NCBI GenBank assembly: GCA_963796275.1
Contig: CAWCKY010000004.1
Location: forward strand, 1,344,001 to 1,408,000
Reading direction: 5' to 3'
DNA length: 64,000 nt
Source: an uncultured Acidobacteriota bacterium
Lineage (GTDB): Bacteria > Acidobacteriota > Blastocatellia > RBC074
Part shown: positions 7,747-51,454 of the stretch, piece by piece
How the letters are laid out: each line of letters begins with the position of its first letter
Numbering within the stretch: position 1 is the first letter of the stretch
Notes under the pieces: generated by a model
Told to the model about the DNA's origin: nothing
Seen by the model: the letters and a program-made list of their open reading frames with translations, nothing else
The model's database searches: none
Translations under genes and position numbers: made by a program

Positions 7747-10700
7747 ATGGGCGACAACCTTAATGATAGCAGTCCAGATACCGCCGAACAAACGAGGGAA
7801 AAAAAAGATGGACACTTCTTCGTGGTTGGGCTCGGCGCATCTGCTGGAGGAATAAAGTCATTTAAGGAGTTTTTTTCGCACGTGCCTCCCCAGAGCGGAA
7901 TGGCATATGTCGTCATTCTGCACATGTCGCCTTCGCACGAGAGCAAACTGACGGAGATACTGCAACTGGCGACGAGGATTCCGGTGACACAGGTGTTAGA
8001 AACGGTCAAGATCGAACCTGACCACATCTATGTTATTCCGCCGAACCGGAGCCTCTCGATGAGAGACGGCAATTTAACGCTTTCGGAGATGACGCGGATC
8101 GAGGAGCGGCGCTCTCCCGTCGATATTTTTTTCCGCTCGCTCGCCGAGTCGAACGATTCACGAGCAGCCTGCGTTATTCTCTCGGGCACTGGGGCCAATG
8201 GCTCGATGGGTCTGAAACGAATCAAGGAGTTTGGCGGTATAGTTTTCGCTCAGGATCCGGCAGAAGCCGAGTACGACGATATGCCGCGCAATGCGATCGC
8301 CACCGGACTGGTCGACTTCATCTTGCCGGTGGCTCAGATGCCGGAGAAGATAATCGCATATAAGAATAACGTCGGCACGGTCCGCATTTCCAACGAGCCT
8401 TTGGAGCGCCACGAAACGGATGAGGCAGCACTGCGCGATATCTTCACTCAACTGAGGGTGCGGACCGGGCATGATTTCACCAACTATAAGCGGGCGACCA
8501 TGCTCCGCCGGATCGAGCGGCGGATCAACGTTTACGAGCTTTCCAACCTGCAGAGTTATGCCCACCTCATCCATGAGCATCCGGAAGAGGCGAGGTCGCT
8601 CCTCAGGGACTTGCTCATCAGCGTGACCAACTTCTTCCGCGACTCGGAGAGGTTTCAGGCGCTTGAAAAAAATATCATTCCGAAACTCTTTGAGAACAAA
8701 AGGGCCGGGGATAATGTGCGCGTCTGGGTCGCGGGCTGCGCCACTGGCGAAGAAGCCTACTCGATCGCGATGCTGCTGTCCGAATACGCCTCGGGTTCCA
8801 TCGATGCCCCGAACCTGCAAGTATTCGCGACCGACCTCGATGAAGAGTCGATCGCGGCGGCGCGCGAAGGATTCTACACAGATACCGAGGTGGCCGAGGT
8901 TTCGCCCGAGCGGCTGCGCCGGTTTTTTACCAAAGATGGAGAAGGTAACCGGGTGCGCCGGGAATTACGGGATATGGTGCTCTTTGCGGCGCATAACATC
9001 ATTAGAGACCCGCCGTTCTCGCAACTCAACCTCGTCTCCTGCCGCAACCTGCTCATCTATCTCAATCGGCCGGCGCAGGAGAAAGTGATGGAGGTTCTCC
9101 ACTTCGCCCTCCGCCCCGAAGGATATCTTTTCCTCGGGACCTCGGAGTCGATCAATGACGCCGCTCACCTCTTCATCACGACAGATAAAGATCATCGCAT
9201 CTATCAAAGTCGCGCAGTGACATCGCACATGTCATTTCCGCTCCCCAAAATGCCGCTTACCACGAGGATCGATCAGCGCCATAGAGAAGAGCGTGATGAG
9301 ACGCGTGCGCATGAGCGCCTGTCATACCTCGACCTGCATCTACGCCTGCTCGAGCAATTTGGCCCCCCCTCAGTCGTGGTCAATGAAAATTACGATATCG
9401 TACATTTATCGGAGCGGGCGGGTCAGTACATGCAATTCACCGGCGGCGAACCAACACACAACCTTCTCAGAGTCGTGCGCCCCGAACTGCGATTGGATTT
9501 GCGCACTGCTCTCTATCAAGCCGTGCAGAAACGAACCAACGTCGAGGCGCGCGGCTTGTACGTCCGCCTAAACAATCACACGCAGACTGTGAATCTGATA
9601 GTGCGTCCCATCATGCGCGATGACGATCCGGGGCGCGGCTTCATTCTCGTCATATTTGAGGAGGCGGACGAGACGGTGGGGAGTGAAGCCCCTCTCTCCA
9701 TAGAGGAGATCAGCCAGGCCGAACCGGTTGCTCACCAGCTTGAGGAAGAGCTTTTGCGCGTCAAAGCCCAGTTGCACGCGACCATCGAACAATACGAGAT
9801 ACAACATGAAGAATTGAAAGCCTCGAACGAAGAGCTACAGGCGATGAACGAGGAGTTGCGGTCGGCAGCCGAAGAGCTGGAGACGGGCAAAGAAGAGCTC
9901 CAATCGGTAAACGAGGAGTTGGTGACCGTCAATCAGGAGCTGAAGGTCAAGATCGAGGAACTCTCTCAGGCCAACAATGACTTTCAGAATCTGATGGCTT
10001 CGACCGGGATCGGCACCATCTTTCTCGACCGGTCTCTGCGCGTTAAACTCTTCACTCCGCGTGCTTGCGATATTTACAACCTGATCCCGGGCGATATTAA
10101 CCGCCCACTGATGGATATCACCACCAGACTCCTCTATGTCGACCTGATCGATGATGTTGAGCAGGTGCTCGATAAGCTGCATCCGGTCGAGCACGAAGTT
10201 CAGACGCGCGACGGAGGCTGGTATCTGGTGCGCCTGGTCCCTTATCGCACTAAGGAAGACCGCATTGAAGGGGCCGTCATTACTTTCATTGATATCACCT
10301 CGCGTAGGGCGGCGGCAGATACGCTGCGCCGCACGCGGGATGAGTTGGAGGTCCGCGTCAAAGAGCGCACGGGGGATTTGCAGACGGTGAATGATGCCTT
10401 GCAGAGTGAGGTCACTGAGCGCAGGGTCGCCGCGGACCGGGCGCGCGGATTGCTGCGGCGAATCATCACGGCTCAGGAGGATGAGCGTAGCCGCATCGCG
10501 CGCAACCTGCACGATCACCTGGGCCAGCAATTGACCGCGCTCCGGCTGCAGCTCGAAGCGATTAAAGATAAAGACGGCAACCGAAAGGAGCTCAATCAGT
10601 CGATTGAACAAGCGCAAATAATCGCCAAACAACTCGATATAGATGTGGATTTCCTCTCGTGGGAACTTCGTCCCGTTTCACTCGACCGCCTCCCTCTGGT

Positions 10701-11118
10701 GACGGCACTCTCCGATTTCGTGCTTGAGTGGTCGAAACATTTCAATATTCCGGCTGAATTTCATACTTCTGATATGGAGATAGGTCGTTTTCCTGAGAAT
10801 ATTGAAACCAATCTCTACCGCATCGCACAGGAGGCGCTCAATAACATCTATAAACATGCGCAAGCCACACTGGTGGACGTCATCTTCGAACGCAGGGACG
10901 ATCATGTCATGCTCATTATTGAAGATAACGGTCAGGGTTTCGATATGAACAAAGTGGCGGTTCAAGGTGGAGAAGAGAAAGGAATGGGATTGGTCGGCAT
11001 GCGTGAGCGAGTGGCCCTCATCGGAGGCACGCTCGAGGTTGAATCCCGATCGGGAGATGGCACAACCATCATCGTACGCGCACCTCTATCGTTATTAATA
11101 GAAAAACAAGGTGTATGA
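7747..11118 (+). CDS. CheB methylesterase-CheR methyltransferase-PAS-HisKA_3 histidine kinase fusion
   Basis: CheB motifs GASAGG and VILHM; CheR motifs VTNFFRD, GCATGEEAYS and SCRNLLIY; coiled coil NEELQAMNEEL; H-box ERSRIARNLHDHLGQ; ATPase boxes EALNNIYKHA, DNGQGF and GMGLVGMRER. Confidence 0.93.
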   Translation: MGDNLNDSSPDTAEQTREKKDGHFFVVGLGASAGGIKSFKEFFSHVPPQSGMAYVVILHMSPSHESKLTEILQLATRIPVTQVLETVKIEPDHIYVIPPNRSLSMRDGNLTLSEMTRIEERRSPVDIFFRSLAESNDSRAACVILSGTGANGSMGLKRIKEFGGIVFAQDPAEAEYDDMPRNAIATGLVDFILPVAQMPEKIIAYKNNVGTVRISNEPLERHETDEAALRDIFTQLRVRTGHDFTNYKRATMLRRIERRINVYELSNLQSYAHLIHEHPEEARSLLRDLLISVTNFFRDSERFQALEKNIIPKLFENKRAGDNVRVWVAGCATGEEAYSIAMLLSEYASGSIDAPNLQVFATDLDEESIAAAREGFYTDTEVAEVSPERLRRFFTKDGEGNRVRRELRDMVLFAAHNIIRDPPFSQLNLVSCRNLLIYLNRPAQEKVMEVLHFALRPEGYLFLGTSESINDAAHLFITTDKDHRIYQSRAVTSHMSFPLPKMPLTTRIDQRHREERDETRAHERLSYLDLHLRLLEQFGPPSVVVNENYDIVHLSERAGQYMQFTGGEPTHNLLRVVRPELRLDLRTALYQAVQKRTNVEARGLYVRLNNHTQTVNLIVRPIMRDDDPGRGFILVIFEEADETVGSEAPLSIEEISQAEPVAHQLEEELLRVKAQLHATIEQYEIQHEELKASNEELQAMNEELRSAAEELETGKEELQSVNEELVTVNQELKVKIEELSQANNDFQNLMASTGIGTIFLDRSLRVKLFTPRACDIYNLIPGDINRPLMDITTRLLYVDLIDDVEQVLDKLHPVEHEVQTRDGGWYLVRLVPYRTKEDRIEGAVITFIDITSRRAAADTLRRTRDELEVRVKERTGDLQTVNDALQSEVTERRVAADRARGLLRRIITAQEDERSRIARNLHDHLGQQLTALRLQLEAIKDKDGNRKELNQSIEQAQIIAKQLDIDVDFLSWELRPVSLDRLPLVTALSDFVLEWSKHFNIPAEFHTSDMEIGRFPENIETNLYRIAQEALNNIYKHAQATLVDVIFERRDDHVMLIIEDNGQGFDMNKVAVQGGEEKGMGLVGMRERVALIGGTLEVESRSGDGTTIIVRAPLSLLIEKQGV

Positions 11119-11130
11119 ACGAGGATTATC

Positions 11131-11784
11131 ATGCGCAAAATCCGCATCCTCATCGCTGAAGATCACGCAATGGTGCGCGAGGGGCTGAAGCTACTGATCG
11201 ATTCGCAACCGAATATGCAGGTAATCGGAGAGGCCGAGAACGGGCAGATTGCCGTCGCGCAGTCGCGGGAATTGATGCCAGACATCGTCCTGATGGACGT
11301 ATCGATGCCCGAGATGAATGGGTTAAAAGCGACCGAAAAACTCCGGCAGGAGTGCCCTCACATCAAGGTTTTGGCGCTCACCCGTCACCGGGACCAGGGG
11401 TTTTTGCAAGAGGTTATACGCGCCGGGGCTGCCGGCTACGTGCTCAAACAGAACACCGCTGCCGAACTGATCCACGCGATAGACGCGGTCGCTTCGGGGG
11501 GAAATTATCTGGATCCCGCCATCGCCGGAAAACTCATCGAGCGGTACGTCGGAGGACAGTCGAAAAACAACTCTGAGTCGCAGGGAGAGCTGAGTCCGCG
11601 CGAGGCTGAGGTCCTGCGCCTCATCGCATGGGGATACAGCAATAAGGAGATCGCCGGCCGCCTCGACATCAGCATTAAGACGGTCGAAGCGCACAAGGCT
11701 AATTCCAGCCGTAAACTGGGTTTGCATAGCCGAATCGATATAGTCCGTTTCGCCTTTCTGCAAGGCTGGCTGGAGGAGAATTAA
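11131..11784 (+). CDS. NarL/FixJ-family response regulator (REC + LuxR HTH)
   Basis: REC motifs AEDH and DIVLMDVSMPEMNG; HTH LSPREAEVLRLIAWGYSNKEIA...KTVEAH; starts 12 bp after the HisKA_3 kinase. Confidence 0.95.
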   Translation: MRKIRILIAEDHAMVREGLKLLIDSQPNMQVIGEAENGQIAVAQSRELMPDIVLMDVSMPEMNGLKATEKLRQECPHIKVLALTRHRDQGFLQEVIRAGAAGYVLKQNTAAELIHAIDAVASGGNYLDPAIAGKLIERYVGGQSKNNSESQGELSPREAEVLRLIAWGYSNKEIAGRLDISIKTVEAHKANSSRKLGLHSRIDIVRFAFLQGWLEEN

Positions 11785-11785
11785 T

Positions 11786-11873
11786 TGATAATTGATAATG
11801 GATAATGGATAATTCGTATGAATTGTTGTCACTGTGTATACGAATTATCAATTATCACTTATCAATTATCCAC
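11786..11873. repeat. Inverted heptamer-repeat hairpin (ATTGATA/ATGGATA arms vs TATCAAT/TATCCAC)
   Basis: attgata attgata atggata atggata attcgtat ... atacgaat tatcaat tatcact tatcaat tatccac, directly after the regulator stop codon. Confidence 0.7.
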
Positions 11874-12095
11874 TCTCTTCTGCCACTGGCATACGAAGAT
11901 AGATCTGTGTAGAATGGCTAGTCGCTTAGCGGGCTTGCACACAACTTGCTGCTGCGAAAGCTGGTTACCGATTCCATCAGGTTTCATTACATCAATGAGT
12001 GCTGACGATCTCAACCGCAGGCAACAGCCGGCGCAGGCCCTGTTCGGAAATTCGAAGACCCCAGAGTTTTCGTGTAAGCGGAGGCTACTATAGCT

Positions 12096-12701
12096 ATGAT
12101 CCGATGTTACCATTGCGGAACCGATAACCTCGACGGTTCCGAGTATTGTGACGAGTGCGGAAAGAAGTTCACAGCTGCGTCGGCGAGAAATTTTTCAACG
12201 GTACCATCGCCCACGCAGACGGCGCCTCCACCTCCCCCCGCATTTACACGTGAATCGGTCCAACCGAAACCGGCGACCCCTTATACACCTGCGCCTCCAC
12301 CCGTTCCGGCTCCTGTCCCGCACGAAGGCCATCGGGTAGATCATCATCCTGAAGAGAATGGAGAGACGCATGTGCGCGCCCGGCTGATCATCCAGCGAGG
12401 CGGCAAGGTCGGCAAAGAATTTCCCATCCAGAGCGATGAATCGCTGATTGGACGATGGGACGCTGATGGAGGCACTTTCCCCGATGTCGACCTTGATCAA
12501 GATGACCCCGAAGCGAAAGTTTCGCGCCGGCATGCGCGGATACACTTTATGAACGAGCAATTTCTGATTGAAGACCTGGGCAGCACCAATGGGACGTTCG
12601 TTAACCGTGGCCCCCGCCTGCTGCCGGGCGACAAGCAACCGCTCAACAACGGTGATGAGATCATCGTCGGCAAAACATTTCTAAAATTTGTCCTGAGTTG
12701 A
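12096..12701 (+). CDS. Zinc-ribbon + Pro-rich linker + FHA domain protein
   Basis: N-terminal CYHCG...YCDECG; FHA motifs IGR, VSRRHA and DLGSTNGTFVN. Confidence 0.9.
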   Translation: MIRCYHCGTDNLDGSEYCDECGKKFTAASARNFSTVPSPTQTAPPPPPAFTRESVQPKPATPYTPAPPPVPAPVPHEGHRVDHHPEENGETHVRARLIIQRGGKVGKEFPIQSDESLIGRWDADGGTFPDVDLDQDDPEAKVSRRHARIHFMNEQFLIEDLGSTNGTFVNRGPRLLPGDKQPLNNGDEIIVGKTFLKFVLS

Positions 12702-12716
12702 AATCAAAGTGTTGAT

Positions 12717-14196
12717 ATGCCTTTTTGTCCAGATTGTGGAGCGCCCACGACAGTCGGTGACCCTTTTTGTGGTGAATGTGGCGCAAAGCAGGATAATTCA
12801 ATCACCTCCACGGTCGCCCCGCAGAGAGAGGCGCGCACTGGAGTTATTAGCATGACCGGACCCGGAAATACCCCTGCAGGAATCCAACTTGCCCCAGGAA
12901 CACTACTGGTCGAACGATATAAAATCGTCAAGCGCATCGGAGGCGGTGGTATGGGATCGGTCTACCTGGCCGAAGACCAGAATCTGGCTAACCGTCCGGT
13001 CGCTGTCAAAGAGATGATCGAAATGTTCGCCGATGAGAATGCGCGCGGGAAAGCCATCGAAGACTTCAAACGCGAAGCCGAACTTCTCGCCCGGCTCGAT
13101 CATCCTTCTATTCCGACCATCTATCAGTATTTCTTCGACATCAATCGCGGTCGCTATTACCTCGGTCATGAAATACATCGATGGCGGCGACCTGGTGGCG
13201 CGCCAGCGCGCCGCGGGAGGCAAGGTCGATGAGCCGATCGTCACCAAATGGGGAGTCGATACGTGCGACGTTCTCCAATACATCCACTCGCAGGCTCCGC
13301 CGATCATTTATCGCGACCTGAAACCCGCAAACCTTATGATCGACGCACGCGCCAATCGGGTTATGCTGGTAGATTTCGGGATCGCGCGTTTCGTCACCCC
13401 GACGCAAAAAGGAGTGACTGCCATCGGCACCATGGGTTATGCTCCACCCGAGCTTTTTGCGGGCAATGTCGAGCCACGTTCCGATATTTATTCGCTGGGA
13501 GCGACCATGTTTCATCTCCTGACGGGCCAAGACCCGCAGGACAATCCGCTTCTGATTTTCGATTTCGCCAAGAACCCAAAACCGCGGCAGATCAATCCAT
13601 CCATCTCTCCGCAGATGGAAGAGTTGGTCTGCCGCGCCGTGGAACACAAGCCCGAAAACCGATTTGCATCCGCGAAAGCGTTCGGCCAGGCGCTGCAGGA
13701 ACATCTGCGCCACATCCATAACGGCGACGAGTTCCCGGTCGTCAATGCGTTCGAGATGCAGCCCGCATATGGAGCTTTGTTAGTCTGCATCAACTGCGGG
13801 CGCGAACTGGCCGTTGACGATGTCTTCTGCGCCTATTGCGGATTCAGGCAACCGTCGAAGCGTACGACGGCGCGGCTCATCGTCCTGGGGACCAACGAAA
13901 TGTCCGCCCAGTTTCCGCTCAACAGCGATGGCGATAATCTCATCGGGCGGGTGGATCCTAACCGCGGGATAAGGCCGGAAGTTGATTTATCGAAATATGA
14001 CCCGGCGGCGCGCGTCTCGCGCCGTCACGCCAGGATTGTCGTGCAGGGCACTCAGTTCTTCATCGAAGATCTCGGAAGCGCCAACGGCACGGTCATCAAT
14101 GGCTCGACTAAACTCTCCCAGGGGAGCCGCCATCTTTTGTTGAGCGGTGACGAACTCAAACTCGGAGAGACGACGCTCAAGTTCGTGGTTTCGTAA
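12717..14196 (+). CDS. Hanks-type Ser/Thr kinase with N-terminal zinc ribbon and C-terminal zinc ribbon + FHA; +1 frameshift at ~13164
   Basis: ORF 12717..13232 has CPDCG..FCGECG, GGGGMGSVY and VAVKE. ORF 13033..14196 has YRDLKPAN, DFG, GTMGYAPPE, CINCG..FCAYCG and an FHA domain (IGR..VSRRHA..GSANGT). Removing one G from ctcggtcatg joins them as YYLVMKYIDGGDL. Confidence 0.9.
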
Positions 14197-14353
14197 GACT
14201 TGAAATTGCGAAAATGATTACCCATTCACCACAAAAGTCGCTGAGGGCAAAACAGAGCATAAAAGCAAGGAGCGGATACCGCGCGAATCTCCGCGGCATC
14301 CCCATTTTGTGTTATGTCTTGATTGTGATTTTTGCTGGTATTTCTCAAATTTG

Positions 14354-14869
14354 ATGATGTTTCAAGCGACACAAGAGAGAGGCGAATCTTCGTCCGTCCG
14401 GTCGAAAGCTCAGAGCGGAGGCAGGGGGCAGAAACCCAATTATAGTTATGTCACCCTGGCCAGCCTCGGGTTGCGGACCGGCGCGTTCCTGATCGACTAT
14501 ATTCTCACTATGTTGATATTGGCTATCCCTCTCGTGCTCGCCGTATATCTCAAGCGACGCCTGCTCGCCGTCACCGCTGCAAATATCGTTGTCACCCTTG
14601 GTTATCTCATCACGGCAGGTGCGATTTTATACAATCTGGTTTACTCATGCGCGAAGACCGGACAGAGTCTCGGTAAGAGCTTCATCGGCCTGCGCGTGGT
14701 GCGGCTCGATGGAAAGCCGATGGATTACAAGACTGCGCTTACGCGCCATCTCGTCGGCTATCCCGTCTCCGCTCTCTGCCTGGGTCTGGGAATGTTATGG
14801 ATGTTCTGGGACGGTAAACAGCAAGGCTGGCACGACAAACTGGCGAAGACGATAGTGATTAAGGACTGA
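14354..14869 (+). CDS. RDD family membrane protein
   Basis: LASLGLRTGAFLIDY, GQSLGKSFIGLRVV and QGWHDKLAKTIV plus hydrophobic helices; start taken at ATG 14354 (ORF track gives 14309). Confidence 0.9.
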   Translation: MMFQATQERGESSSVRSKAQSGGRGQKPNYSYVTLASLGLRTGAFLIDYILTMLILAIPLVLAVYLKRRLLAVTAANIVVTLGYLITAGAILYNLVYSCAKTGQSLGKSFIGLRVVRLDGKPMDYKTALTRHLVGYPVSALCLGLGMLWMFWDGKQQGWHDKLAKTIVIKD

Positions 14870-14873
14870 TCAT

Positions 14874-16661
14874 ATGACGATTACTTATTGTGGGAAATGT
14901 GGGTCCGCCAATGGAAACAGCGCCCGTTATTGTCGACAATGCGGAGTGGAGTTGAGCAGCCAGTCCGGATTCTCCCCGCAATCGACACCCCTCAATGTGG
15001 AATTTTTCCCGAAACCCGGAACGAGAATTGCTAGAAGAGATGCGCAAAAGAACACTTCCTCATCTCAATCGGAACAGATAGTGATCTCCGCGAAGGGATC
15101 GATCTCCGATGACTCATCCTCGAGCGCCATAGAACCGGGGGATGCGGTGCAGGATCCGGTGGCGATCAGCAAATCATTGCGGCGCGTGCGCGCTTCCGGT
15201 TCGTTGATACTGGAAGTCGCCTCCAAGAAAAAACAGGATGAGATGAACGCTATCATTGCAATGGCGATCGAGGGGTTTGAGAAACAGCCCGAACGACCTG
15301 AGGAGACGCAGCAAGCGCCCACATCGACCCGATCGAATCCGGCCTTTGGCGAGTCGAAACAGCGCCCGCTCCCGGCGGCCGGCGTCCAGGTAAAAATTCC
15401 CAACGCGACGCAACCGCTGGAAATGGTGATTTCAACCTTCCAGGCGGTCTGGCGCAAAGCCGTCGATCTGATGACGACCTCATCGCCCCTTTCGGATTCC
15501 GGCACCACTGCCTCGGGCGGAGGTCCCATATATCCCAACGGTCCCTCTATCGTCCTCGCTCAGGCGTCCGGACTGAATACCAAACGCAACCTCAGTCCCA
15601 AGCTGATAGCCGGATTGATCGTGATCGCGCTGCTGATCAGCGTCGGCTTCTACCAGCTTATTCGAGATCGGCTGCTCTCTCCCGACCAATCTCTTAGTTC
15701 GGAGCGGGAACTGCAGAGTGCGGAAGAACAGAGCGTGAGGTACGTTCAACTCGGCAAGAACGCAAGCGAGAAGGGGCAATACGATGCCGCGATCGCAAAT
15801 TTCAGGACGGCACTCTCGATGACTCCCAACAAGTCGGACCTGGTCTTCATGATCGCGCAGACGCACTCATCAGCCGGCCAGACCGAAGAAGCGTTGAGAA
15901 CATACAAGGCAGTGCTGCGGATCGATCCGGAACATCTGCAGGCGCGTTTGAATGTGGCCCTGATCCATCGAGCTCGGGGAAACTGGAACGCAGCTTATGA
16001 GGAGTTCAAGCGCATCATCGCGCTCGATCAGAACAGCGAGGAAGCGAACGTAGCGTTAACGGCTATCGAAGCATATCAGGCAGACAGCGCGCAACCGCCG
16101 CCGCCCATCGTTACCACTGCGCGGCGTTCACGCGCGACATCGAGGAAAACTCTCGTACTTCCGCCGGCCACCACGGCGCGATCACAGCTAACGTTCTTTT
16201 CACCGGAAGTTCCCGCCACGCAGATCATCCGGCCCCCCGCCGCTTTGGGCAGCGATAACAAGGAAGACAACCCTGACCCGCGGGGCATCGCGGAATCCCG
16301 TAGGAATCTCGGTCTCCGTTTTCTCCAGGTTAGATTATATCGCGCTGCGATCAACGAATTTTTGGCCACGCTCCGGCTGACGCCGGACGATAAAGACATC
16401 TATTATTTCATGGCAACGGCTTTTTCCGGACTCGGGCAGCCTGAACAGGCGCACGATTACTACAAGCGCGTCGACCGAGGCCAGTACCTGCAAATCTCGC
16501 AAACCGGGGCGCGCAAGACCGAGAAGGCGGCGCGCGAAGCAGCGAAGAGGCGCGCAGAAATGTTGAAGAATGACCTCGAGAGCGAACAACAGAGTGAAGT
16601 CAGACAAGTGCCCGGAGGGAGCAATCCCTTCAGTAAAGCGCTCATGAATATCTTTAAATAA
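14874..16661 (+). CDS. Zinc-ribbon / low-complexity / single TM / TPR-repeat protein
   Basis: YCGKCG..YCRQCG at the N-terminus; Ser/Thr/Pro-rich region; TM LIAGLIVIALLISVGFY; TPR-like repeats (GQYDAAIANFRTAL, GNWNAAYEEFKRII). Confidence 0.8.
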   Translation: MTITYCGKCGSANGNSARYCRQCGVELSSQSGFSPQSTPLNVEFFPKPGTRIARRDAQKNTSSSQSEQIVISAKGSISDDSSSSAIEPGDAVQDPVAISKSLRRVRASGSLILEVASKKKQDEMNAIIAMAIEGFEKQPERPEETQQAPTSTRSNPAFGESKQRPLPAAGVQVKIPNATQPLEMVISTFQAVWRKAVDLMTTSSPLSDSGTTASGGGPIYPNGPSIVLAQASGLNTKRNLSPKLIAGLIVIALLISVGFYQLIRDRLLSPDQSLSSERELQSAEEQSVRYVQLGKNASEKGQYDAAIANFRTALSMTPNKSDLVFMIAQTHSSAGQTEEALRTYKAVLRIDPEHLQARLNVALIHRARGNWNAAYEEFKRIIALDQNSEEANVALTAIEAYQADSAQPPPPIVTTARRSRATSRKTLVLPPATTARSQLTFFSPEVPATQIIRPPAALGSDNKEDNPDPRGIAESRRNLGLRFLQVRLYRAAINEFLATLRLTPDDKDIYYFMATAFSGLGQPEQAHDYYKRVDRGQYLQISQTGARKTEKAAREAAKRRAEMLKNDLESEQQSEVRQVPGGSNPFSKALMNIFK

Positions 16662-16668
16662 GCGAAAA

Positions 16669-18408
16669 GTGCCACGACTGATTGTCAGAGCTACACCATC
16701 ACACGGCGACTCCGTCGTCGAATTGTCGAGATTGCGAACAACTATTGGCCGCTCGGCGCGCAATGACCTATGCGTGGAAGACCCGTTCGCATCGCGACTC
16801 CACGCGGAGGTGCGGAGACGCGGCGACAATTTCTGGATAAGTGACCTGGGGAGCGCCAACGGCACGACGGTCAACGGAGCGCGTCTGACGAATGTCCCGG
16901 CACAACTCCACGATCGCGATATCGTTAGCATCGGTGAAACCGAGATCGAATATTCTGAACGCGCCGATACCGCCCCGGCACGTGGGCGCACGAGCATACT
17001 CTATTCCGATTCGCCCATCGCCCCCACCCCCGAAGCGACGATCTCGGCGAGTTCCCGCAATTCGGCTGCCAACCTCCTCTCCTCTCTCGAAGTCTCGCAG
17101 CGGACGCAGGTGAGGGCCGCCGGCGCAGTCCACGCCGTCCAGGATGATACGCTAGCGGTCATCAGCGATGTCAGCGTGAAGCTCCTCTCGCCTCTCTCAC
17201 TCGATGAAACTTTGAAACAGGTTCTGGAATACGTCTTCAAGGCTGTGCCCGCTGACCGCGGGTACGTTATGCTGCTCGAAACTCCAGAGAACAACGCAAA
17301 GGCCGAGCCTGAACTGGTCTGTAAGGCGATGAAGACCCGAACGGCGACCACCGAGACGGAGACCGACGTCCAGCTCAGCCGCTCGATCACCGAGCAGGTG
17401 ATAAAACAGGGCATCTCCGTGCTCACCTCTGATGCGCTGCAGGATCCGCGATTTCAGGAGCGCAGTTCGGTCATGCTCAGCGGTATCCATTCAGTAATGG
17501 CCGTGCCGCTAGCAGTCGAGAGCCGTATCTCAGGGATGATCTATGTCGACAATCCGCTGCACACCAATCGCTTCACCAAGCGCGACCTACAATTGCTGAC
17601 CTACATTGCCGGAGTCGCTGCCATCCGCATCGAAAATATGAGGTTGCTCGAAGTACAGCAGGAACAGAAGCGGCTGGCTAACGAGCTGGCCTTGGCCAGT
17701 GAGATCCAACTGCGCCTGCATCCCGAGATCCCGCCGTCGCTTCCCGGCTATGAACTGATCGGCCTAAGTTTCCCCTGCTATGAGGTGGGCGGCGATTATT
17801 ACGACTTCATCGAGCAGCGCGATGGACGCTGCGTAATCGCACTCGGCGATGTCTCCGGCAAAGGAACGGCGGCTGCTCTACTCATGTCATCAGTACACGC
17901 CGCAGTGCGAGCGCACACGAGGACGAGGCTTTCCGCCGGTGAAGTCGTCAGCGAAATCAATCTGTATATCTACGACAATACGCCGGCGAACCGCTTCGTC
18001 ACACTCTTTTACAGCGAACTCGATCCCCGCACGCACCAGTTGACCTATATCAACGCGGGCCATAATTCTCCGCTCCTCGTTCGCGCGAGCGGAGAAGTAA
18101 CGCGTCTCGACATCGGCGGATTCCCTCTGGGGATAACCGAGTTCGGCGATTATCGCGAAGGGTGGGTGGAACTCGAGATGGGAGACGTATTGGTCATATA
18201 CTCCGACGGCGCGAGCGAGAGCCTCAACGAGCAGGGCGAGGAGTTCGGCGAGGCCCGTTTGATCGATCTCGTCCAGAAGAACCGCGGCCGGACAGCCGCC
18301 GGGCTGCGTGATCGCATTGACGAAGCGCTCACCAAATTCGTCGGAAAAGCCAAGACCGTCGATGACCTAACACTCGTGATATTAAAACGAAAGAGCCAGG
18401 ATGAATGA
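16669..18408 (+). CDS. FHA-GAF-SpoIIE (PP2C/RsbU-like) Ser/Thr phosphatase
   Basis: FHA IGRS..ASRLHA..GSANGT; GAF SVMAVPL..GMIYVD; SpoIIE motifs VGGDYYD, GDVSGKG, NAGH, YSDG and DDLT. Confidence 0.93.
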   Translation: MPRLIVRATPSHGDSVVELSRLRTTIGRSARNDLCVEDPFASRLHAEVRRRGDNFWISDLGSANGTTVNGARLTNVPAQLHDRDIVSIGETEIEYSERADTAPARGRTSILYSDSPIAPTPEATISASSRNSAANLLSSLEVSQRTQVRAAGAVHAVQDDTLAVISDVSVKLLSPLSLDETLKQVLEYVFKAVPADRGYVMLLETPENNAKAEPELVCKAMKTRTATTETETDVQLSRSITEQVIKQGISVLTSDALQDPRFQERSSVMLSGIHSVMAVPLAVESRISGMIYVDNPLHTNRFTKRDLQLLTYIAGVAAIRIENMRLLEVQQEQKRLANELALASEIQLRLHPEIPPSLPGYELIGLSFPCYEVGGDYYDFIEQRDGRCVIALGDVSGKGTAAALLMSSVHAAVRAHTRTRLSAGEVVSEINLYIYDNTPANRFVTLFYSELDPRTHQLTYINAGHNSPLLVRASGEVTRLDIGGFPLGITEFGDYREGWVELEMGDVLVIYSDGASESLNEQGEEFGEARLIDLVQKNRGRTAAGLRDRIDEALTKFVGKAKTVDDLTLVILKRKSQDE

Positions 18409-19636
18409 ACTGAAACAGATCATCTTCATACCGCTCCTCTCACTTCTGCCATGCGTCTTGTGGCTGTGGTATTTCTCGAGCCGCAGTCTGTACAAGCGTC
18501 CATCGATTCGCGTCCTGGGTGTGACATTCATCCTCGGAGCGGTGGCCACGGTCCCTGCTCTCTTTCTCAACCTGGAAGGCCAGAAGTTTTTCCGCGAGCA
18601 TCTCGGCGAAAGCCAGCTCTCGCATATTCTCGTGCTTTTATTCATCGTCGGGCCGGTGGAAGAGCTGGTCAAACTTCTGGTGGTTTATCTCTACGCTTAT
18701 CGAAAGCCTCAATTCGACGAACCGCTCGATGGTGTAATCTTCAGCGCCACCGCGGCGCTGGGATTCGCTGCGGTAGAGAATGTGGTCTATCTGGGACAGC
18801 ACGATCCAATGCTCGTTCTGTTGCGCGGCCCGCTTTCGAACCCGGGTCACGCGCTCTTTTCGGCGCTCTGGGGATTGAGCCTGAGCCGTGCGAAGGCGGC
18901 GCCCAATCTGGTGCGCACGCGTTTCCCGATCATCGCCGGCGGTCTGCTGCTTGCTTCGGTGCTTCATTCTCTCTTCGATATCCTACTTATTGCATCATCG
19001 AGATGGAGCATCGTCTTTTTCGGAATACTCGTGGCGGTAATGGCAGGCCTCTTCTTCTGGGTGCGTTCTCGCATCAGATTCCATACGGAAACATCGCCGC
19101 ACCGGGAAGGGACGCTCCTGATGCCGCTCTGGCGCTATTGCCAGGAATGTGGGGCGAGGGGAACGGCTGGCATGCGCTGCACGAAATGCGGCGGCTTCAT
19201 CCCGGAGCCCGACGAATTGCAGCTCTGTCCTGTCTGTTCGACAATGCAGCGACCGGGCGCAAAATTCTGTTCGCACTGCGGAGCCAACATCAAACTACCG
19301 GTCAGGGAGAACCTGGCCACGCGCCCCCACTTCGTCTCGGTCACGCCTGAAGGGCAAGAGCGCATCGCCTACATCATCAACCATAGCGATATAATGATCG
19401 GCCGCACCTTGAATAACGGGTTCGTCATCGAACACCCATCCGTCTCCAAGCGACACGCCCGCATCGTCGTCGAAAATAACGACTACGCGCTCTACGATCT
19501 GGGAAGCAGCAACGGCACGTTCGTCAACGGAAAAAGGATTATGGAGACGAAGCTGCAGGATGGATGCGAGGTGCGGTTCGGCCGCGCACATTATGTCTAT
19601 CGATCACACAAGAGCATGGCGGAAAAAACTGCCTAA
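18401..19636 (+). CDS. PrsW-family intramembrane metalloprotease fused to double zinc ribbon and FHA
   Basis: PrsW motifs VEELVK (EExxK), GFAAVEN (FxxxE), GHALFS and HSLFD (HxxxD); four CxxC pairs; C-terminal FHA (IGR..VSKRHA..GSSNGTFVN). Overlaps the upstream gene by 8 bp. Confidence 0.88.
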   Translation: MNELKQIIFIPLLSLLPCVLWLWYFSSRSLYKRPSIRVLGVTFILGAVATVPALFLNLEGQKFFREHLGESQLSHILVLLFIVGPVEELVKLLVVYLYAYRKPQFDEPLDGVIFSATAALGFAAVENVVYLGQHDPMLVLLRGPLSNPGHALFSALWGLSLSRAKAAPNLVRTRFPIIAGGLLLASVLHSLFDILLIASSRWSIVFFGILVAVMAGLFFWVRSRIRFHTETSPHREGTLLMPLWRYCQECGARGTAGMRCTKCGGFIPEPDELQLCPVCSTMQRPGAKFCSHCGANIKLPVRENLATRPHFVSVTPEGQERIAYIINHSDIMIGRTLNNGFVIEHPSVSKRHARIVVENNDYALYDLGSSNGTFVNGKRIMETKLQDGCEVRFGRAHYVYRSHKSMAEKTA

Positions 19637-19683
19637 CCGGAATTCGCCCACAAGAAAAATAAATTAAAAAAAGAAGAGTTTCT

Positions 19684-20025
19684 GCGTTTGGAGTTCCGCG
19701 TTTACGCGGTCTTTCCTCTCCGCACTTGATTTTCCTGACCACCGGAAGGCGCAACTCCCAACATTGAGATCGCGTTCGGAGTTCCGCGTTTACGCGGTCT
19801 TTCCTCTCCGCACTTGATTTTCCTGACTGCCGGAAGGCGCAACTCCCAACATTGAGATCGCGTTCGGAGTTCCGCGTTTACGCGGTCTTTCATCTCCGCA
19901 CTTGATTTTCCTGATCGCCGGAAGGCGCAACTCCCAACATTGAGATCGAGTTCGGAGTTCCGCGTTTACGCGGTCTTTCATCTCCGCACTTGATTTTCCT
20001 GACTGCCGGAAGGCGAACACCCAAC
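19684..20025. repeat. Tandem array of 4 x 88 bp REP-doublet units
   Basis: GGAGTTCCGCGTTTACGCGG recurs at 19690, 19778, 19866 and 19954. The intervening sequence is near-identical and ends in a degenerate inverted REP (gaaggcgcaactccc). Confidence 0.92.
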
Positions 20026-20147
20026 TCTCTCGCCTTCGCCTTTTGATTTCTCCTCTACTCTGTTTTACTATCGCGGCATCGTTAATCAGCTGACGACGGC
20101 CACCCCTAGCAGATTCATTTACGGCCATCCCACCTCTGAGGAAACCA

Positions 20148-23100
20148 ATGAACAGTTCTACCATATTGCTGTGCCTATCTCTGTTCTTCTGTCACCTGGA
20201 CGACCTAGATCACGCCAGCTTCGAGGGTTTAGTGACCGAATCTTCAAACAATGCCATCGTCGGAGCGCGTGTGACGCTGCACCACATCGGTAACAACAGC
20301 GAGCGATCGGTGATCACCGATCGGGAAGGCCATTATCGCTTCCCGAAGCTCGCCGCGGGAACATATGTCCTGCGCGTCGAAGCGACGGGATTTCAGAGCG
20401 TGCGATACGAAGGGATCGAGACGATCGCGGGGGTCACACAGCGCCGCGACTTTCGTCTGCAGCCGGCGGTCATCGAAGCTCAGATCACTATCGATGCCTC
20501 GACCGATACATCGATGATCGACACATCGCGGACGGTCGTTGGAGGGACCATTACCGCACAAGAGATCGAGGTGCTTCCCGTTGAAACACGCAACCCGCTC
20601 GACCTCGTCTACGCGTTGGCAGGCACATCGCCGCCGGCGTTCAGCGACCGCGATCTGGCGGAAGGAGACCAATCGGATAACTTCCAGCAAACGCCCGAAG
20701 AGGCCGGCGTATTTTCGCTCAACGGAGGGACGCCTTTTTCCAACAACATAACCATCGAGGGTATGGACAATAACGATGACCGCGGCGCTCGAGAGAGAAT
20801 CAATCTCTCTTCGCATTCCGTCGAAGAGGTACAGGTGATAACCAACCAGTTTTCATCCGAATACGGAAGGGCCTCGGGCGGGCGCGTCAACCTGCGAATA
20901 CGCGGAGGATCGAATAATCTCCGCGGTGAAGCCTTCTATTACTTGCGCGAAGAAAGCCTCAATGCCAATGACTTCAGACGCAATGCCGATCCGGCGCGCG
21001 GCGTTCGCCTCCCCTATCAAAACCATAACCCGGGCGCCAAAATCGGCGGGCCGATCATTCCTGACAGACTTTTTCTCTTCGGCGCTTATGAGTATGACTA
21101 CATCTACGACCGCGCGGAGATCTCGGCACTCCTTCCCGTCGAGACCAACCCCATATTTCCGCTGCCCAGACCTACCGGCGCCAATCTGGGGAGCACCTCG
21201 CATAACAGGATGGGCATCCCTGTCGATGTAAATGGAGGCGCGGCCGTCGGTCTCTACGACCTGCAGGTCACGACGCCACGCACGGCACACACTTTCCAAT
21301 CGCGAGCCGATTTCAAACCGGGAGCGCAGCATGACATATTCGCGATCTACACGCTGGCGCGCAATGTCGATGAGCGCGGCTTCCCCGGCGGGCGGCGCAC
21401 GCTGGACACAATCAGGCGGACCGGCAGAAGCAGCCAATCCATCGCATTTTCAGGGACCTCGGTCGTCACATCCTGGCTGATCAATAGCGCAAAATTTCAA
21501 TTCTCACGGCTAGCACCTGCCGACGCCCCTTCGGATAATGGCCCTGTCATCCTGATCGAGACAGACGATCCGCGCGATGTGGTCGGGCAATCTAGCGCGA
21601 ATCCCTTCACCAGGAGCGGGAGATTGACGGCGGGATCGAGCACGCTCGGCGGAACCGACCGCCGCGAAGAGCGCTATCAGATACAGGAGACGCTTAATTA
21701 CATCCGCGGTGGCCATACCTGGCGCCTCGGCGGAGACTTCCAGAAGATCCGCTCGCGCTTTATAGATATCTCCGATGCGACCGGAACCTTCTCATTCGCG
21801 ACTCCGGCCGATTTTCTCGCCAGCACGCCATCTCGGTACCAGCACCGTTTCAACACCGGTTCGGAACTGCGTAATAGCTATACCGCCATATTTCTGCAGG
21901 ATGATTGGCGGGTTCGCCCACATCTCACTCTCTCGTTGGGGTTACGCTGGGACAATGAAACTATCCTCAAAGACCGCAACAATTTCGGCCCCCGGGTATC
22001 ATTCGCCTGGGATCCCTTCCATACCAGCAGAACCGTGGTGCGCGGAGGTTTTGGGATTTTTTATAACAGAGTTTTGCTGCGCACGCTCGACGATTTTCTT
22101 TTGACCTCGAACACGATCGCGATCGATACGAACAACGAAGCAGCGGAACACCTCTTGACCGAATTGCAATTTCCGAATGCGCTTGCGGCGGATGACCCGA
22201 GAGTCGGCCAGTTGGGAGTGCGTGAATCCGGATTTCTGCGCCGCATTGGCGAAGGCTTCCGCATTCCTGAAAGTTACCAGGCCGCCCTCGGCTTTGAACG
22301 CGAATTCGGAGGCGAATACAAAATAGGGTTAAATTATGTATTCAGTCGCGGTCTTCATTTGTGGCGCGAGATCAATGCGAATGCGCCGCGTCTGCCCGTG
22401 GGATACCGCGATTTCACCGAATATTTGACCGCTCGCGAATTTGATAACACGCGCGACCCGATAACCCGCCGCCGTCCGATCACGGCGACGGGGAACGCCG
22501 ATACCGTACGGTTCAGCCTCAGCCAGGCCCCGAGCCAGGTCGTCAACGAAAACGGCAAGAGGATCGTAGTTATAGGCTTGAACAATACATCGACCAGCAA
22601 CCAATCGATATCGACCGCGGGAGCCCGCGCCGCCATCCGCAATCTCCGCCCTGATCCCACGGTAACTCAGGTAGAGGAACTGCAATCGCGCGGCAACAGC
22701 TACTATCACGGGCTGAATATCGAATTGCAGCGGCGGTTCATCGACCGGGTTTTCTTCCGAGCTTCATACACTCTCAGTAAGTTGATCGACGATGGAGTGG
22801 TCAATACATCCTCACCGCTAGTAAGCGGAAACTTCGTCCGCGAGAGAGCGCCGAGCCTGATGGACGCACGCCATCGGGTTACATTCAGCGGCAGTTATCT
22901 GATCCCACGATATTTCGGCGGAATCAATCTATCGGGGACTTTCACACTTTATTCGGCGCGCCCATTCTCGATCGGGATCAATGGAAATGACAGAAATCTC
23001 GATGACGTGAATAATGACCGGCCGATTTTTGGGGGCGAGGCGGATGAGATCATCTGGAGAGGCACCAGCGAGCCGCTTGACCAGGCTTTAGTCAACGGAT

Positions 23101-23381
23101 TTTCGCTACCTGTGATCGGCACGTCCGGCAATCTGCCGCGGAATGCGGGACGAGGGCCGAGGTCATACACACTCAATTTACGCCTATCGCGCGAGTTCGT
23201 CTTCACTGAAACCCGGACCGCCGAGATACAGGTGGAGGCATTCAATCCATTCAATACGACGGTTTATAGTTTCGGCAGCGAGTTTGTCGATTACACGCCC
23301 GCGAGACTGGGAGACTTCCTGACGCCTCCGCGAACGGTGAAACCGAGAACGATGCGAGTGGGATTGAAGGTGAAGTTTTAA
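20148..23381 (+). CDS. TonB-dependent receptor with carboxypeptidase-regulatory-like N-domain (acidobacterial Oar-like type)
   Basis: N-domain FEGLVT..GARVTL..GTYVLRVEATGF; VEEVQVITNQFSSEYGRASGG; FLQDDWRV..LTLSLGLRWD; C-terminal RTMRVGLKVKF ending in Phe. Confidence 0.92.
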   Translation: MNSSTILLCLSLFFCHLDDLDHASFEGLVTESSNNAIVGARVTLHHIGNNSERSVITDREGHYRFPKLAAGTYVLRVEATGFQSVRYEGIETIAGVTQRRDFRLQPAVIEAQITIDASTDTSMIDTSRTVVGGTITAQEIEVLPVETRNPLDLVYALAGTSPPAFSDRDLAEGDQSDNFQQTPEEAGVFSLNGGTPFSNNITIEGMDNNDDRGARERINLSSHSVEEVQVITNQFSSEYGRASGGRVNLRIRGGSNNLRGEAFYYLREESLNANDFRRNADPARGVRLPYQNHNPGAKIGGPIIPDRLFLFGAYEYDYIYDRAEISALLPVETNPIFPLPRPTGANLGSTSHNRMGIPVDVNGGAAVGLYDLQVTTPRTAHTFQSRADFKPGAQHDIFAIYTLARNVDERGFPGGRRTLDTIRRTGRSSQSIAFSGTSVVTSWLINSAKFQFSRLAPADAPSDNGPVILIETDDPRDVVGQSSANPFTRSGRLTAGSSTLGGTDRREERYQIQETLNYIRGGHTWRLGGDFQKIRSRFIDISDATGTFSFATPADFLASTPSRYQHRFNTGSELRNSYTAIFLQDDWRVRPHLTLSLGLRWDNETILKDRNNFGPRVSFAWDPFHTSRTVVRGGFGIFYNRVLLRTLDDFLLTSNTIAIDTNNEAAEHLLTELQFPNALAADDPRVGQLGVRESGFLRRIGEGFRIPESYQAALGFEREFGGEYKIGLNYVFSRGLHLWREINANAPRLPVGYRDFTEYLTAREFDNTRDPITRRRPITATGNADTVRFSLSQAPSQVVNENGKRIVVIGLNNTSTSNQSISTAGARAAIRNLRPDPTVTQVEELQSRGNSYYHGLNIELQRRFIDRVFFRASYTLSKLIDDGVVNTSSPLVSGNFVRERAPSLMDARHRVTFSGSYLIPRYFGGINLSGTFTLYSARPFSIGINGNDRNLDDVNNDRPIFGGEADEIIWRGTSEPLDQALVNGFSLPVIGTSGNLPRNAGRGPRSYTLNLRLSREFVFTETRTAEIQVEAFNPFNTTVYSFGSEFVDYTPARLGDFLTPPRTVKPRTMRVGLKVKF

Positions 23382-23469
23382 ACGGGGTGACCAAACTAAG
23401 CCGTAAGCGGTCAATTCCCGGCACTTCTACCCCGGGAACTGACCATAATCACAGCCGCGTAGCTTTAAT

Positions 23470-24332
23470 GTTTGGAGTTCCGCGTTTACACTGTCTTTAT
23501 CATTTCGGAAGATTACCGGACCGCCTGAAGGCGGAACTCCGAACTTCGCGTTTGGAGTTCCGCGTTTACGCGGTCTTTATCATTCAGAAGATTTCCGGAC
23601 CGCCTGAAGGCGGAACTCCGAACTTCGCGTTTGGAGTTCCGCGTTTACGCGGTCTTTATCATTTCGGAAGATTTCCGGACCGCCTGAAGGCGGAACTCCG
23701 AACTTCGCGTTTGGAGTTCCGCGTTTACGCGGTCTTTATCATTCAGAAGATTTCCGGACCGCCTGAAGGCGGAACTCCGAACTTCGCGTTTGGAGTTCCG
23801 CGTTTACGCGGTCTTTATCATTCAGAAGATTTCCGGACCGCCTGAAGGTGGAACTCCGAACTTCGCGTTTGGAGTTCCGCGTTTACGCGGTCTTTATCAT
23901 TTCGGAAGATTTCCGGACCGCCTGAAGGCGGAACTCCGAACTTCGCGTTTGGAGTTCCGCGTTTACGCGGTCTTTATCATTCAGAAGATTTCCGGACCGC
24001 CTGAAGGTGGAACTCCGAACTTCGCGTTTGGAGTTCCGCGTTTACGCGGTCTTTATCATTCGGAAGATTTCCGGACCGCCTGAAGGCGGAACTCCGAACT
24101 TCGCGTTTGGAGTTCCGCGTTTACGCGGTCTTTATCATTCAGAAGATTTCCGGACCGCCTGAAGGTGGAACTCCGAACTTCGCGTTTGGAGTTCCGCGTT
24201 TACGCGGTCTTTATCATTTCGGAAGATTTCCGGACCGCCTGAAGGCGGAACTCCGAACTTCGCGTTTGGAGTTCCGCGTTTACGCGGTCTTTATCATTCG
24301 GAAGATTTCCGGACCGCCAAAAGCGGTACTCG
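23470..24332. repeat. Tandem array of 11 x 79-80 bp REP doublets (REPIN/BIME-like)
   Basis: Units start at 23474, 23554, 23633, 23713, 23792, 23871, 23951, 24030, 24109, 24188 and 24268. Each reads GGAGTTCCGCGTTTACGCGGTC - spacer - GACCGCCTGAAGGCGGAACTCC - gaacttcgcgttt. The array lies between convergent genes. Confidence 0.95.
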
Positions 24333-24361
24333 CGTCCCAAAGGAATTGGCCACAAAACTCA

Positions 24362-26917: not shown

Positions 26918-26944
26918 GGCTTTAGGGTTTCATGGCTTCTGTTT

Positions 26945-51362: not shown

Positions 51363-51454
<92 letters not shown>

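Follow-up and report, generated by a model that had tools for sequence, protein, structure and literature searches.

A conserved six-gene operon of Blastocatellia that may link threonine phosphorylation to a PrsW-family membrane protease

In mycobacteria and other actinobacteria, the cluster fhaA-fhaB(fipA)-pstP-rodA-pbpA-pknA-pknB combines Hanks kinases and a PP2C phosphatase with FHA proteins that read phosphothreonine at the membrane. Here we describe a cluster of six genes (genes 1 to 6) found in a 64,000-nucleotide stretch of contig CAWCKY010000004.1 from an uncultured bacterium of the Blastocatellia (Acidobacteriota); this whole stretch is referred to as the window. Like its mycobacterial counterpart the cluster holds a kinase, a PP2C phosphatase and at least two FHA proteins in one operon, and the product of gene 1 is laid out like FhaA: its N-terminal domain is small, its linker is long and disordered, and FHA stands at the C-terminus. 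There are also differences: no PASTA sensor, RodA or PBP is encoded, the kinase is soluble and has an FHA domain of its own, and the phosphatase is of the SpoIIE/RsbU type with FHA and GAF domains attached. Also, the PrsW protease, the RDD protein, a protein with a zinc ribbon, one transmembrane segment and TPR repeats, and a total of six zinc ribbons have no counterpart in mycobacteria. The NCBIfam model for FhaB (FhaB_Rv0019c) scores 42-68 bits against a cut-off of 125.

A second comparison concerns the archaellum repression module ArnA/ArnB of Sulfolobus. ArnA is described as a four-Cys zinc finger with an FHA domain that binds phosphorylated ArnB (PMC6509490), and the module operates with the kinases ArnC and ArnD and the phosphatase PP2A (PMC6509490, PMC7472852). 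The architecture of gene 1 is alike, with a Pro/Gln-rich linker joining a four-Cys zinc finger to an FHA domain, and phosphorylation-dependent FHA docking under the control of Hanks kinases and a phosphatase would be common to both systems. Unlike gene 1, archaeal ArnA partners with the vWA protein ArnB and is not encoded together with a kinase, a PrsW or an RDD protein. In type VI secretion (T6SS), the threonine-phosphorylation pathway PpkA/PppA/Fha switches the machine on when the FHA protein binds a phosphothreonine-bearing membrane component, according to the account in PMC3953482. Here too, a kinase/phosphatase pair may set such a mark on a membrane component. The cluster has no T6SS genes, however, the TagH model reaches only 36-50 bits (cut-off 120) and the membrane enzyme carries FHA within its own chain.

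Finally, PrsW of Bacillus subtilis is summarized in PMC3482391 as the site-1 protease of the anti-sigma-W factor RsiW. Gene 6 shares the family domain and the conserved Glu/His motifs, and a single-pass membrane protein with its N-terminus inside is encoded nearby, comparable to RsiW. It differs in scoring below the equivalog cut-off, in the lack of a sigma/anti-sigma pair, in its cytoplasmic double zinc ribbon and FHA domain and in its location within a kinase/phosphatase operon. Proteins of other phyla (PrsW with FHA, PrsW with a double zinc ribbon, PrsW-RDD, kinase-RDD, and double zinc ribbon-FHA-RDD) use the same domain vocabulary, but as single fused and uncharacterized proteins.

The kinase/PP2C/FHA logic and the PrsW site-1 protease are each known; no characterized system combines both. 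The initial annotation of the locus had likewise named no characterized system of this composition, and a full-text literature search (with subscription-only papers and supplements outside its reach) found no description of the operon. Searching PrsW with 'FHA domain' yields one paper on polymorphic toxins and PrsW with RDD yields none, whereas an intramembrane protease with FHA and threonine kinase leads to a review of Mycobacterium tuberculosis virulence in which the operon is not described.

Composition and conservation of the cluster

Positions and contents of the genes are listed in Table 1. With the exception of the kinase gene, the gene order, gaps and domains given in the initial annotation are confirmed by the open reading frame (ORF) list and Pfam: all ORFs are on the forward strand, with gaps of 15, 157, 4, 7 and -8 nucleotides. 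The parts list stands as well, and comprises a Hanks kinase as writer, four FHA proteins as readers, a SpoIIE-type PP2C as eraser, PrsW, RDD and the zinc ribbon-transmembrane-TPR protein. Pfam reports FHA in gene 1 (E 3e-16), RDD in gene 3 (2.3e-26; 93 bits against a cut-off of 24), many TPR families in gene 4 (for instance TPR_2, 7.7e-18), FHA (3.7e-20), GAF (4.2e-14) and SpoIIE/PP2C (6.6e-50) in gene 5, and PrsW (1.7e-39) and FHA (1.6e-20) in gene 6. The FHA matches of all four proteins (E 4e-14 to 2e-20) exceed the curated cut-off. Hydropathy indicates that genes 1, 2 and 5 encode no transmembrane segments. None of the six proteins attains the cut-off of an NCBIfam model.

Zinc ribbons had been noticed in four proteins, and exact CxxC-x(9-10)-CxxC units are indeed found in genes 1, 2, 4 and 6. 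These amount to six units, with two each in genes 2 and 6 and single ones in gene 1 (residues 4-21) and gene 4. As the corresponding Pfam matches all remain under their curated cut-offs (19-24 bits against 25-27), these assignments are based on the Cys pattern and its conservation; in gene 6 all eight Cys are invariant among the 15 aligned homologues.

Table 1. Genes of the cluster and adjoining features, in window coordinates.
Feature	Position	Strand	Content
Gene 1	12096-12701	+	Zinc ribbon, Pro-rich linker, FHA; 201 amino acids; predicted soluble ArnA-like adaptor
Gene 2, 5' piece	12717-13232	+	Zinc ribbon and kinase N-lobe; meaningful to ~13163
Gene 2, 3' piece	13033-14196	+ (frame +1)	Kinase C-lobe, zinc ribbon, FHA; meaningful from ~13165
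Gene 3	14354-14869	+	RDD-family membrane protein; alternative GTG start at 14309
Gene 4	14874-16661	+	N-terminal zinc ribbon, Ser/Thr-rich region of ~220 amino acids, one transmembrane segment, TPR repeats
Gene 5	16669-18408	+	FHA-GAF-SpoIIE/PP2C phosphatase
Gene 6	18401-19636	+	PrsW-family intramembrane protease, double zinc ribbon, FHA
Upstream intergenic region	11785-12095	+	Probable promoter region; GGAGG Shine-Dalgarno sequence 11 nucleotides before the ATG of gene 1
Tandem repeat	19684-20025	+	88-nucleotide unit, 3.9 copies (TRF); GC hairpin and T-rich tail in each

According to the initial annotation, the operon would be refuted if its genes did not co-occur in relatives. To see whether they stay together, 15 aligned homologues of the PrsW-zinc ribbon-FHA protein were used for scanning one genome per species. 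This yielded 165 matching stretches, 117 of which encode a relative, and the best 80 loci were analyzed; their PrsW proteins are 46-83% identical to that of the window over the best segment. Where the upstream side of the PrsW gene extends over 8 kb or more (52 loci), all six genes occur in the same order and on the same strand in 49, and the annotation is not refuted on this count. Counted per gene, and only where the needed flank is available, the phosphatase is present in 64/66 loci, gene 4 in 59/60, RDD in 57/57, the kinase in 52/53 (3' part) and 51/52 (5' part), and gene 1 in 51/52. Median intergenic gaps in these relatives are 32-129 nucleotides, on one strand. Clustering of all ORFs of at least 100 amino acids in the 80 loci reveals no recurring families besides the six, antisense shadow ORFs aside, and the commonest flanking gene, a TonB-like outer membrane protein gene that is also found in the window (20148-23381), is seen in just 14 of the 80. 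The cluster is a lineage-conserved unit around which the flanks change.

Changing flanks are also what one would see around an anti-phage or conflict system, with the kinase, FHA and protease parts acting as sensor and effector. The two kinase halves match the PADLOC models PD-T4-6 and mad6, and PrsW domains are reported in polymorphic toxin systems (PMC3482391). However, these PADLOC-DB 2.0 matches concern the generic kinase domain and the other five proteins have none, Pfam detects no toxin or nuclease domain, and the cluster is nearly universal in a single order within its clade, unlike patchy defence islands. We therefore consider a role in conflict very improbable.

Deviations from the standard arrangement are few. 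In one locus (L070) gene 4 is divergent, and at the 40% coverage threshold it was scored as missing. The most distant locus (L080) has no zinc ribbon-transmembrane-TPR gene; its RDD protein has its own N-terminal zinc ribbon and a linker of ~200 amino acids, and this protein of 361 amino acids (L080:7022-8107) stands in for the separate genes 3 and 4. Inserted between it and the kinase gene are a Uma2-family endonuclease and two ORFs without Pfam match. An apparent fusion of genes 4 and 5 in L036 (1145 amino acids) was rejected, being a run of X that derives from masked N.

Taxon labels deserve a comment. Whereas 68 of the 80 loci are labelled Acidobacteria(ota), Blastocatellia or Blastocatellales, the remaining 12 (L004, L005, L010, L015, L018, L021, L023, L029, L031, L033, L057 and L060) are labelled Heliomicrobium or Heliobacteriaceae (Bacillota). 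Their PrsW proteins are 70-77% identical to that of the window and the operon is the same where the upstream flank suffices. Probably these labels do not fit the sequences.

Integrity of the kinase gene

The kinase had been described as a single gene encoding zinc ribbon-kinase-zinc ribbon-FHA. This does not apply to the window sequence, in which it is not one ORF but is split between frames 0 and +1. The piece in frame 0 covers the first zinc ribbon and positions 1-69 of the Pkinase profile (PF00069), and its last ~23 codons are out-of-frame read-through; the piece in frame +1 covers Pkinase positions 74-257 (1.1e-27), the second zinc ribbon and FHA (4.3e-14). The cause is one extra base at ~13160-13167, which is missing from 14 of the 14 nearest relatives. 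The loci L070 and L071 read CTC-GTC at this site, and the window looks like a change from G to GG. The kinase is one ORF of 460-518 amino acids in 55 of the 56 relatives in which both halves were found, the sole exception being L070, where two single-base insertions are present at sites other than that of the window. Programmed +1 frameshifting was rejected for want of a slippery run, and because none of the 14 nearest relatives has the extra base.

As sequenced, then, the kinase of the window genome is broken, which weighs against a working circuit, and because the extra base is located outside any long homopolymer a real mutation is possible. Based on this, it might be argued that the module is decaying in this genome and is either non-functional or rewired to another kinase, for which a second kinase/PP2C/vWA cluster at 24362-28549 could supply the activity. 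Neither half of the kinase contains any further disabling change, though, the other five genes are intact, and the gene is whole in nearly all relatives. In addition, a second apparent frameshift is seen in the housekeeping gene metH of the same window, which points to indel errors in the assembly. This methionine synthase gene (reverse strand, 29585-33303) comes as two ORFs, 31378-33303 and 29585-31306; one piece carries S-methyl_trans and Pterin_bind, the other the B12-binding and activation domains. The reading frame shifts inside an A-run near 31450-31460, with that of the downstream part continuing open for 72 nucleotides into the upstream ORF; it looks like a one-base deletion, probably introduced during assembly. 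Apart from the extra base, no difference breaks the frame of the kinase gene, which is conserved in other respects, and metH looks frameshifted as well; the kinase frameshift is therefore probably an assembly error, and we consider a real pseudogene roughly half as likely. The length of the contig (1.64 Mb) is counted on the same side, as are the single-base insertions at other sites of this gene in L070, another metagenome-assembled genome. Decay of the module is accordingly doubtful, yet a serious possibility. With the writer gene frameshifted, the circuit deserves the name complete, given to it in the initial annotation, only if the extra base is a sequencing error.

The catalytic motifs of the kinase are retained. 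The two pieces in the window contain the Gly-loop, the VAxK Lys, a YRD catalytic loop, DFG and an APE-like motif, and an alignment of 55 full-length relatives (sequences below 450 amino acids left out) shows that Gly-loop, VAVK Lys, YRDLKPAN, DFG and the activation-loop Thr are retained. The Tyr variant of the catalytic loop is known from PKA. Three Thr in the activation loop are conserved at 87-100%. A search with the 3' piece among proteins of 600-2000 amino acids returned kinase-zinc ribbon-FHA proteins, labelled Pyrinomonadaceae or Blastocatellia, that are 54-59% identical; this size range misses the orthologues of 494-518 amino acids and has no bearing on the frameshift.

A putative phosphothreonine-controlled membrane complex

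We propose that the cluster is a self-contained Ser/Thr phospho-signalling operon of Blastocatellia that assembles a switchable inner-membrane complex, and consider the chances of this being right about even. The soluble kinase would autophosphorylate on the conserved activation-loop Thr and would also phosphorylate its partners on conserved Thr located in disordered stretches, foremost among them Thr101, Thr108 and Thr124 in the linker of the phosphatase and Thr238 of PrsW as candidates. The FHA domains of genes 1, 2, 5 and 6 would read these marks, so that kinase, phosphatase and adaptor gather at the PrsW, RDD and TPR membrane proteins, while the common four-Cys ribbons could serve as a second and constitutive assembly tag. 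Docking that depends on phosphorylation would then gate proteolysis by PrsW, for which the neighbouring single-pass protein of gene 4 is the likeliest substrate, and the FHA-GAF-PP2C phosphatase would reset the system. Signals might enter through the intramembrane site of RDD, the periplasmic TPR domain or the GAF domain. The ArnA-like protein of gene 1 may, like ArnA or GarA, pass the signal on to targets beyond the operon.

With respect to the readers, translations and homologue alignments reveal that all four FHA domains keep the GR, SxxH and NG residues by which phosphothreonine would be bound. Residues 3-189 of gene 1 align to residues 4-193 of the ArnA chain 5a8i_A (E 3.8e-11) with the Cys pairs matched, and its FHA domain has GarA/OdhI as best structural matches (the NCBIfam OdhI model stays below its cut-off, with 61 against 200 bits). 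This FHA domain is also 50% identical over 108 amino acids to the C-terminal FHA of gene 2. Homologues of gene 1 of at least 330 amino acids were left out of the alignment.

These likenesses allow for a different output, namely the soluble gene 1 adaptor itself, acting as GarA/OdhI or ArnA does on outside targets such as enzymes or transcription, with the membrane proteins (PrsW included) as mere sensor or anchor and proteolysis unregulated. The full-length alignment with ArnA and the structural matches fit such a role, gene 1 looks like a copy of the kinase's own zinc ribbon-FHA tail, and gene 4 lacks a conserved substrate motif. On the other hand, the conserved cluster encodes neither an ArnB-like vWA partner nor a target gene, the locus L047 keeps genes 3 to 6 without genes 1 and 2, and invariant catalytic residues in PrsW are not expected for a mere anchor. 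We find this alternative unlikely.

The phosphatase (PF07228, 170 bits against a cut-off of 25) retains the metal-binding Asp motifs GGDYYDF, LGDVSGKG, SDG and DDLT across 70 sequences. Its nearest solved structures are RssB-like proteins, Rv1364c, SiaA and SpoIIE, i.e. phosphatases of the RsbU/SpoIIE type. The three linker Thr named above, located between FHA and GAF (Thr108 in the context T-S-I-L), are conserved at 94-99%. For this alignment and that of gene 6 partial ORFs at contig ends were left out and one ORF per locus was used.

The protease has a score of 135.9 bits for PrsW (PF13367; cut-off 23.5), whereas the NCBIfam equivalog NF033739 is reached with 104.4 bits only (curated cut-off 225). 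All 15 aligned homologues share E87, E88, K91, E126, H150, H189 and D193 without variation, and these residues are conserved in 79 sequences; in the PrsW family such Glu/His motifs in membrane helices are assigned to catalysis. Hydropathy gives five strong transmembrane segments, and a hydropathy profile of 15 homologues, read with the positive-inside rule, points to seven helices, an outside N-terminus and an inside C-terminus. Thr238 is 100% conserved within the invariant stretch SPHREGT(238)LLMP, between the last helix and the zinc ribbons. Searches of solved structures give no sequence match to the PrsW or RDD parts.

The position of this invariant stretch, exactly at the junction of membrane domain and tail, brings to mind self-processing: on a signal PrsW would cut between its membrane domain and the zinc ribbon-FHA tail, thereby releasing a soluble adaptor like gene 1, to which the tail is paralogous. 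Self-processing has been proposed for PrsW-toxin fusions (PMC3482391). In the account given there it concerns exported toxins, whereas the zinc ribbons and FHA of the present tail must stay in the cytoplasm, and by hydropathy most catalytic residues appear to lie toward the outer leaflet. We give this explanation little credence.

We return to the proposed switchable complex and its other membrane proteins. Gene 3 (RDD, PF06271) has three transmembrane segments by hydropathy; the family is described in PMC12419801 as having an intramembrane binding site that faces the cytoplasm, with a role that is still obscure. Gene 4 has one transmembrane segment (hydropathy, residues 245-263), as do 60 of its 62 homologues, each with exactly one predicted, and its TPR domain is probably periplasmic. 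The initial annotation had pointed to the Ser/Thr-rich cytoplasmic region of gene 4 as a docking site for the FHA domains. This finds no support in a conservation profile based on 50 of the 62 homologues (those of 400-800 amino acids), in which the region is poorly conserved except for the zinc ribbon and contains no conserved Thr. It should be kept in mind that multi-site phosphorylation of a disordered region needs no fixed positions. The idea that PrsW would cleave an anti-sigma factor, taken from its established function, is not transferable either, as neither the conserved cluster nor any of the window ORFs that were scanned contains a sigma or anti-sigma gene.

Several points count against the proposed complex, in addition to the broken kinase gene. 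The candidate PrsW substrate, gene 4, has no conserved Thr, and its one conserved cytoplasmic motif, the juxtamembrane [AS]Q[AS]SG, was rejected as a general cleavage or docking site because just 25 of 62 homologues have it and L080 lacks it. The topology of PrsW is a prediction from hydropathy. A transcription factor, sigma factor and anti-sigma factor are all missing from the cluster. Phosphatases of the SpoIIE/RsbU type classically act on STAS partners that are phosphorylated by non-Hanks kinases, which is a difficulty here because no STAS-domain partner is encoded in the cluster; more generally, neither a STAS-domain substrate nor a GHKL anti-sigma kinase is present among the six genes or the recurrent neighbours, leaving out a partner-switching context. 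Finally, L047 has genes 3 to 6 but not genes 1 and 2, and in L039 and L045 the PrsW-FHA gene is found behind unrelated genes and without the phosphatase.

How PrsW, RDD and FHA are combined in other genomes was analyzed with a HMMER search of gene 6 against 1.84 billion cluster representatives, yielding 46,390 hits at E up to 1e-3. The closest PrsW relative (P0002) is 96% identical. Among the best 150 hits only P0121 (59%) and P0122 (46%) are further full-length matches to the Blastocatellia protein with PrsW, double zinc ribbon and FHA; both have PrsW and FHA by Pfam, and the double zinc ribbon is detected in P0122. Many other matches are proteins of ~270-340 amino acids that cover the PrsW-ribbon part alone (query residues ~8-297). 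A tblastn search of plasmids with the PrsW-FHA protein gave one match, to FHA only, in Nonomuraea.

Pfam analysis of 28 hits, chosen by length and non-randomly, revealed 11 PrsW proteins with a C-terminal double zinc ribbon, one with an N-terminal ribbon, two PrsW-RDD fusions (P0157 and P0228) and one PrsW-ankyrin protein. P0157 matches gene 6 over the PrsW-ribbon part (33% identity, E 3e-40) and gene 3 over the RDD part (28% identity, E 9e-14), and a search with it recovered two more PrsW-RDD fusions (P0391 and P0392) plus an RDD protein with a TPR-type domain. ESM Atlas cluster labels broaden the picture: PrsW with FHA is found in clusters labelled Chloroflexota (58 members), Bacillota (155) and Actinomycetota (74), and other clusters combine PrsW with RDD (58), Pkinase with RDD (100), zinc ribbon with RDD (102), double ribbon and FHA with RDD in the cluster name (126), GYF with RDD (298) and GYF with PrsW (56). 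These clusters are leads without alignments; the domain contents are valid by themselves. A kinase-RDD fusion from the cyanobacterium Trichodesmium is tabulated in a 2007 survey (PMC2176072).

PrsW and RDD have cytoplasmic partner domains in common, and fusions between the two occur occasionally; mainly on these grounds, the PrsW of gene 6 probably works together with the RDD protein of gene 3. The composition of the Pfam sample and the small number of PrsW-RDD fusions (3 clusters at 90% identity) count against this. The presence of PrsW with FHA in other phyla lowers the rarity of the combination and raises its generality. Given that PrsW and RDD each recur in several phyla in fusion with ribbons, FHA, a kinase or each other, it might be speculated further that FHA on PrsW makes intramembrane proteolysis depend on the phosphothreonine mark of a Hanks kinase, with RDD as obligate cofactor or sensor, and that the operon is the unfused form of a widespread but unrecognized signalling principle. 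We put this forward tentatively and think it rather unlikely to hold in full.

Surroundings and significance

The region directly upstream of the cluster (7747-11784) encodes a hybrid kinase of 1123 amino acids (CheB-CheR-PAS-HisKA_3-HATPase) and a NarL/LuxR response regulator. In none of the 80 related loci does the cluster have the CheB/CheR-histidine kinase or the NarL-type regulator beside it. Between the stop of the response regulator and gene 1 lies an AT-rich, near-perfect palindrome of 84 nucleotides (11787-11870) with GATAAT-like repeats, which occurs once in the window; the fold of 11775-11885 has -37.8 kcal/mol (z -6.6). It could be a terminator, an operator or the remnant of a small mobile element. 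Promoter-like hexamers are present, but are weak evidence because they are located inside the palindrome. An Rfam search of 11000-20500 (E up to 0.1) yielded only two sub-threshold matches to plant microRNAs, both on the palindrome. An ORF of 91 amino acids (11818-12093) was considered as a seventh gene and rejected, having no Pfam match and no tblastn match in the 80 loci.

Downstream, terminator-like matches occur in the 88-nucleotide repeat at 19696, 19784, 19872 and 19960, and the array may act as terminator of the cluster. It is located just upstream of the TonB-like outer membrane protein gene. A second array (23470-24318; 79-nucleotide unit, 10.7 copies) is found just downstream of that gene. 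The core hairpin TTCCGCGTTTACGCGGTCTTT is common to both arrays, with 15 occurrences in the window against 0 expected, and is absent from all 80 related loci. Interpretation of the arrays as CRISPR was rejected, since whole units are 95-96% alike, and three short ORFs at 23387-24379 were dismissed as artefacts of the array.

The second Ser/Thr group, a trio on the reverse strand located 5-9 kb downstream of the cluster (24362-28549), consists of a vWA protein (27752-28549), a PP2C_2 phosphatase (26945-27700) and a kinase-TPR protein of 851 amino acids (24362-26917). With 31.3 bits the kinase domain of the latter remains just below the Pfam cut-off of 31.7, and it may be a pseudokinase. The vWA protein belongs to the partner type of archaeal ArnA-like proteins, yet looks unrelated.

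Other features of the window are the following. A DUF421/YetF-like ORF (40085-40711) matches only positions 3-71 of the 129 in its profile and has an overlap of 145 nucleotides with an aldo/keto reductase ORF whose domain begins at residue 102; the overlap (region 40085-41808) may result from a mis-called start or from another frameshift. A DDE_5 transposase fragment at 47708-48385 covers positions 182-253 of 272 in the profile only. The sole Rfam match of the whole window at gathering scores is a tRNA gene on the reverse strand (51364-51454).

If the module just tunes a local housekeeping process, the present description is a useful annotation and no more. It would add to what little is known of signalling in the Acidobacteriota, an abundant soil phylum. 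Beyond that, the operon would offer a test case for three questions: whether phosphothreonine signalling controls intramembrane proteolysis, what RDD proteins do, and which role is played by the small zinc ribbons that are ubiquitous on bacterial membrane proteins. Should the wider principle be true, it would provide a first function for RDD, and the Blastocatellia operon would be a form of phospho-gated regulated proteolysis that can be dissected.

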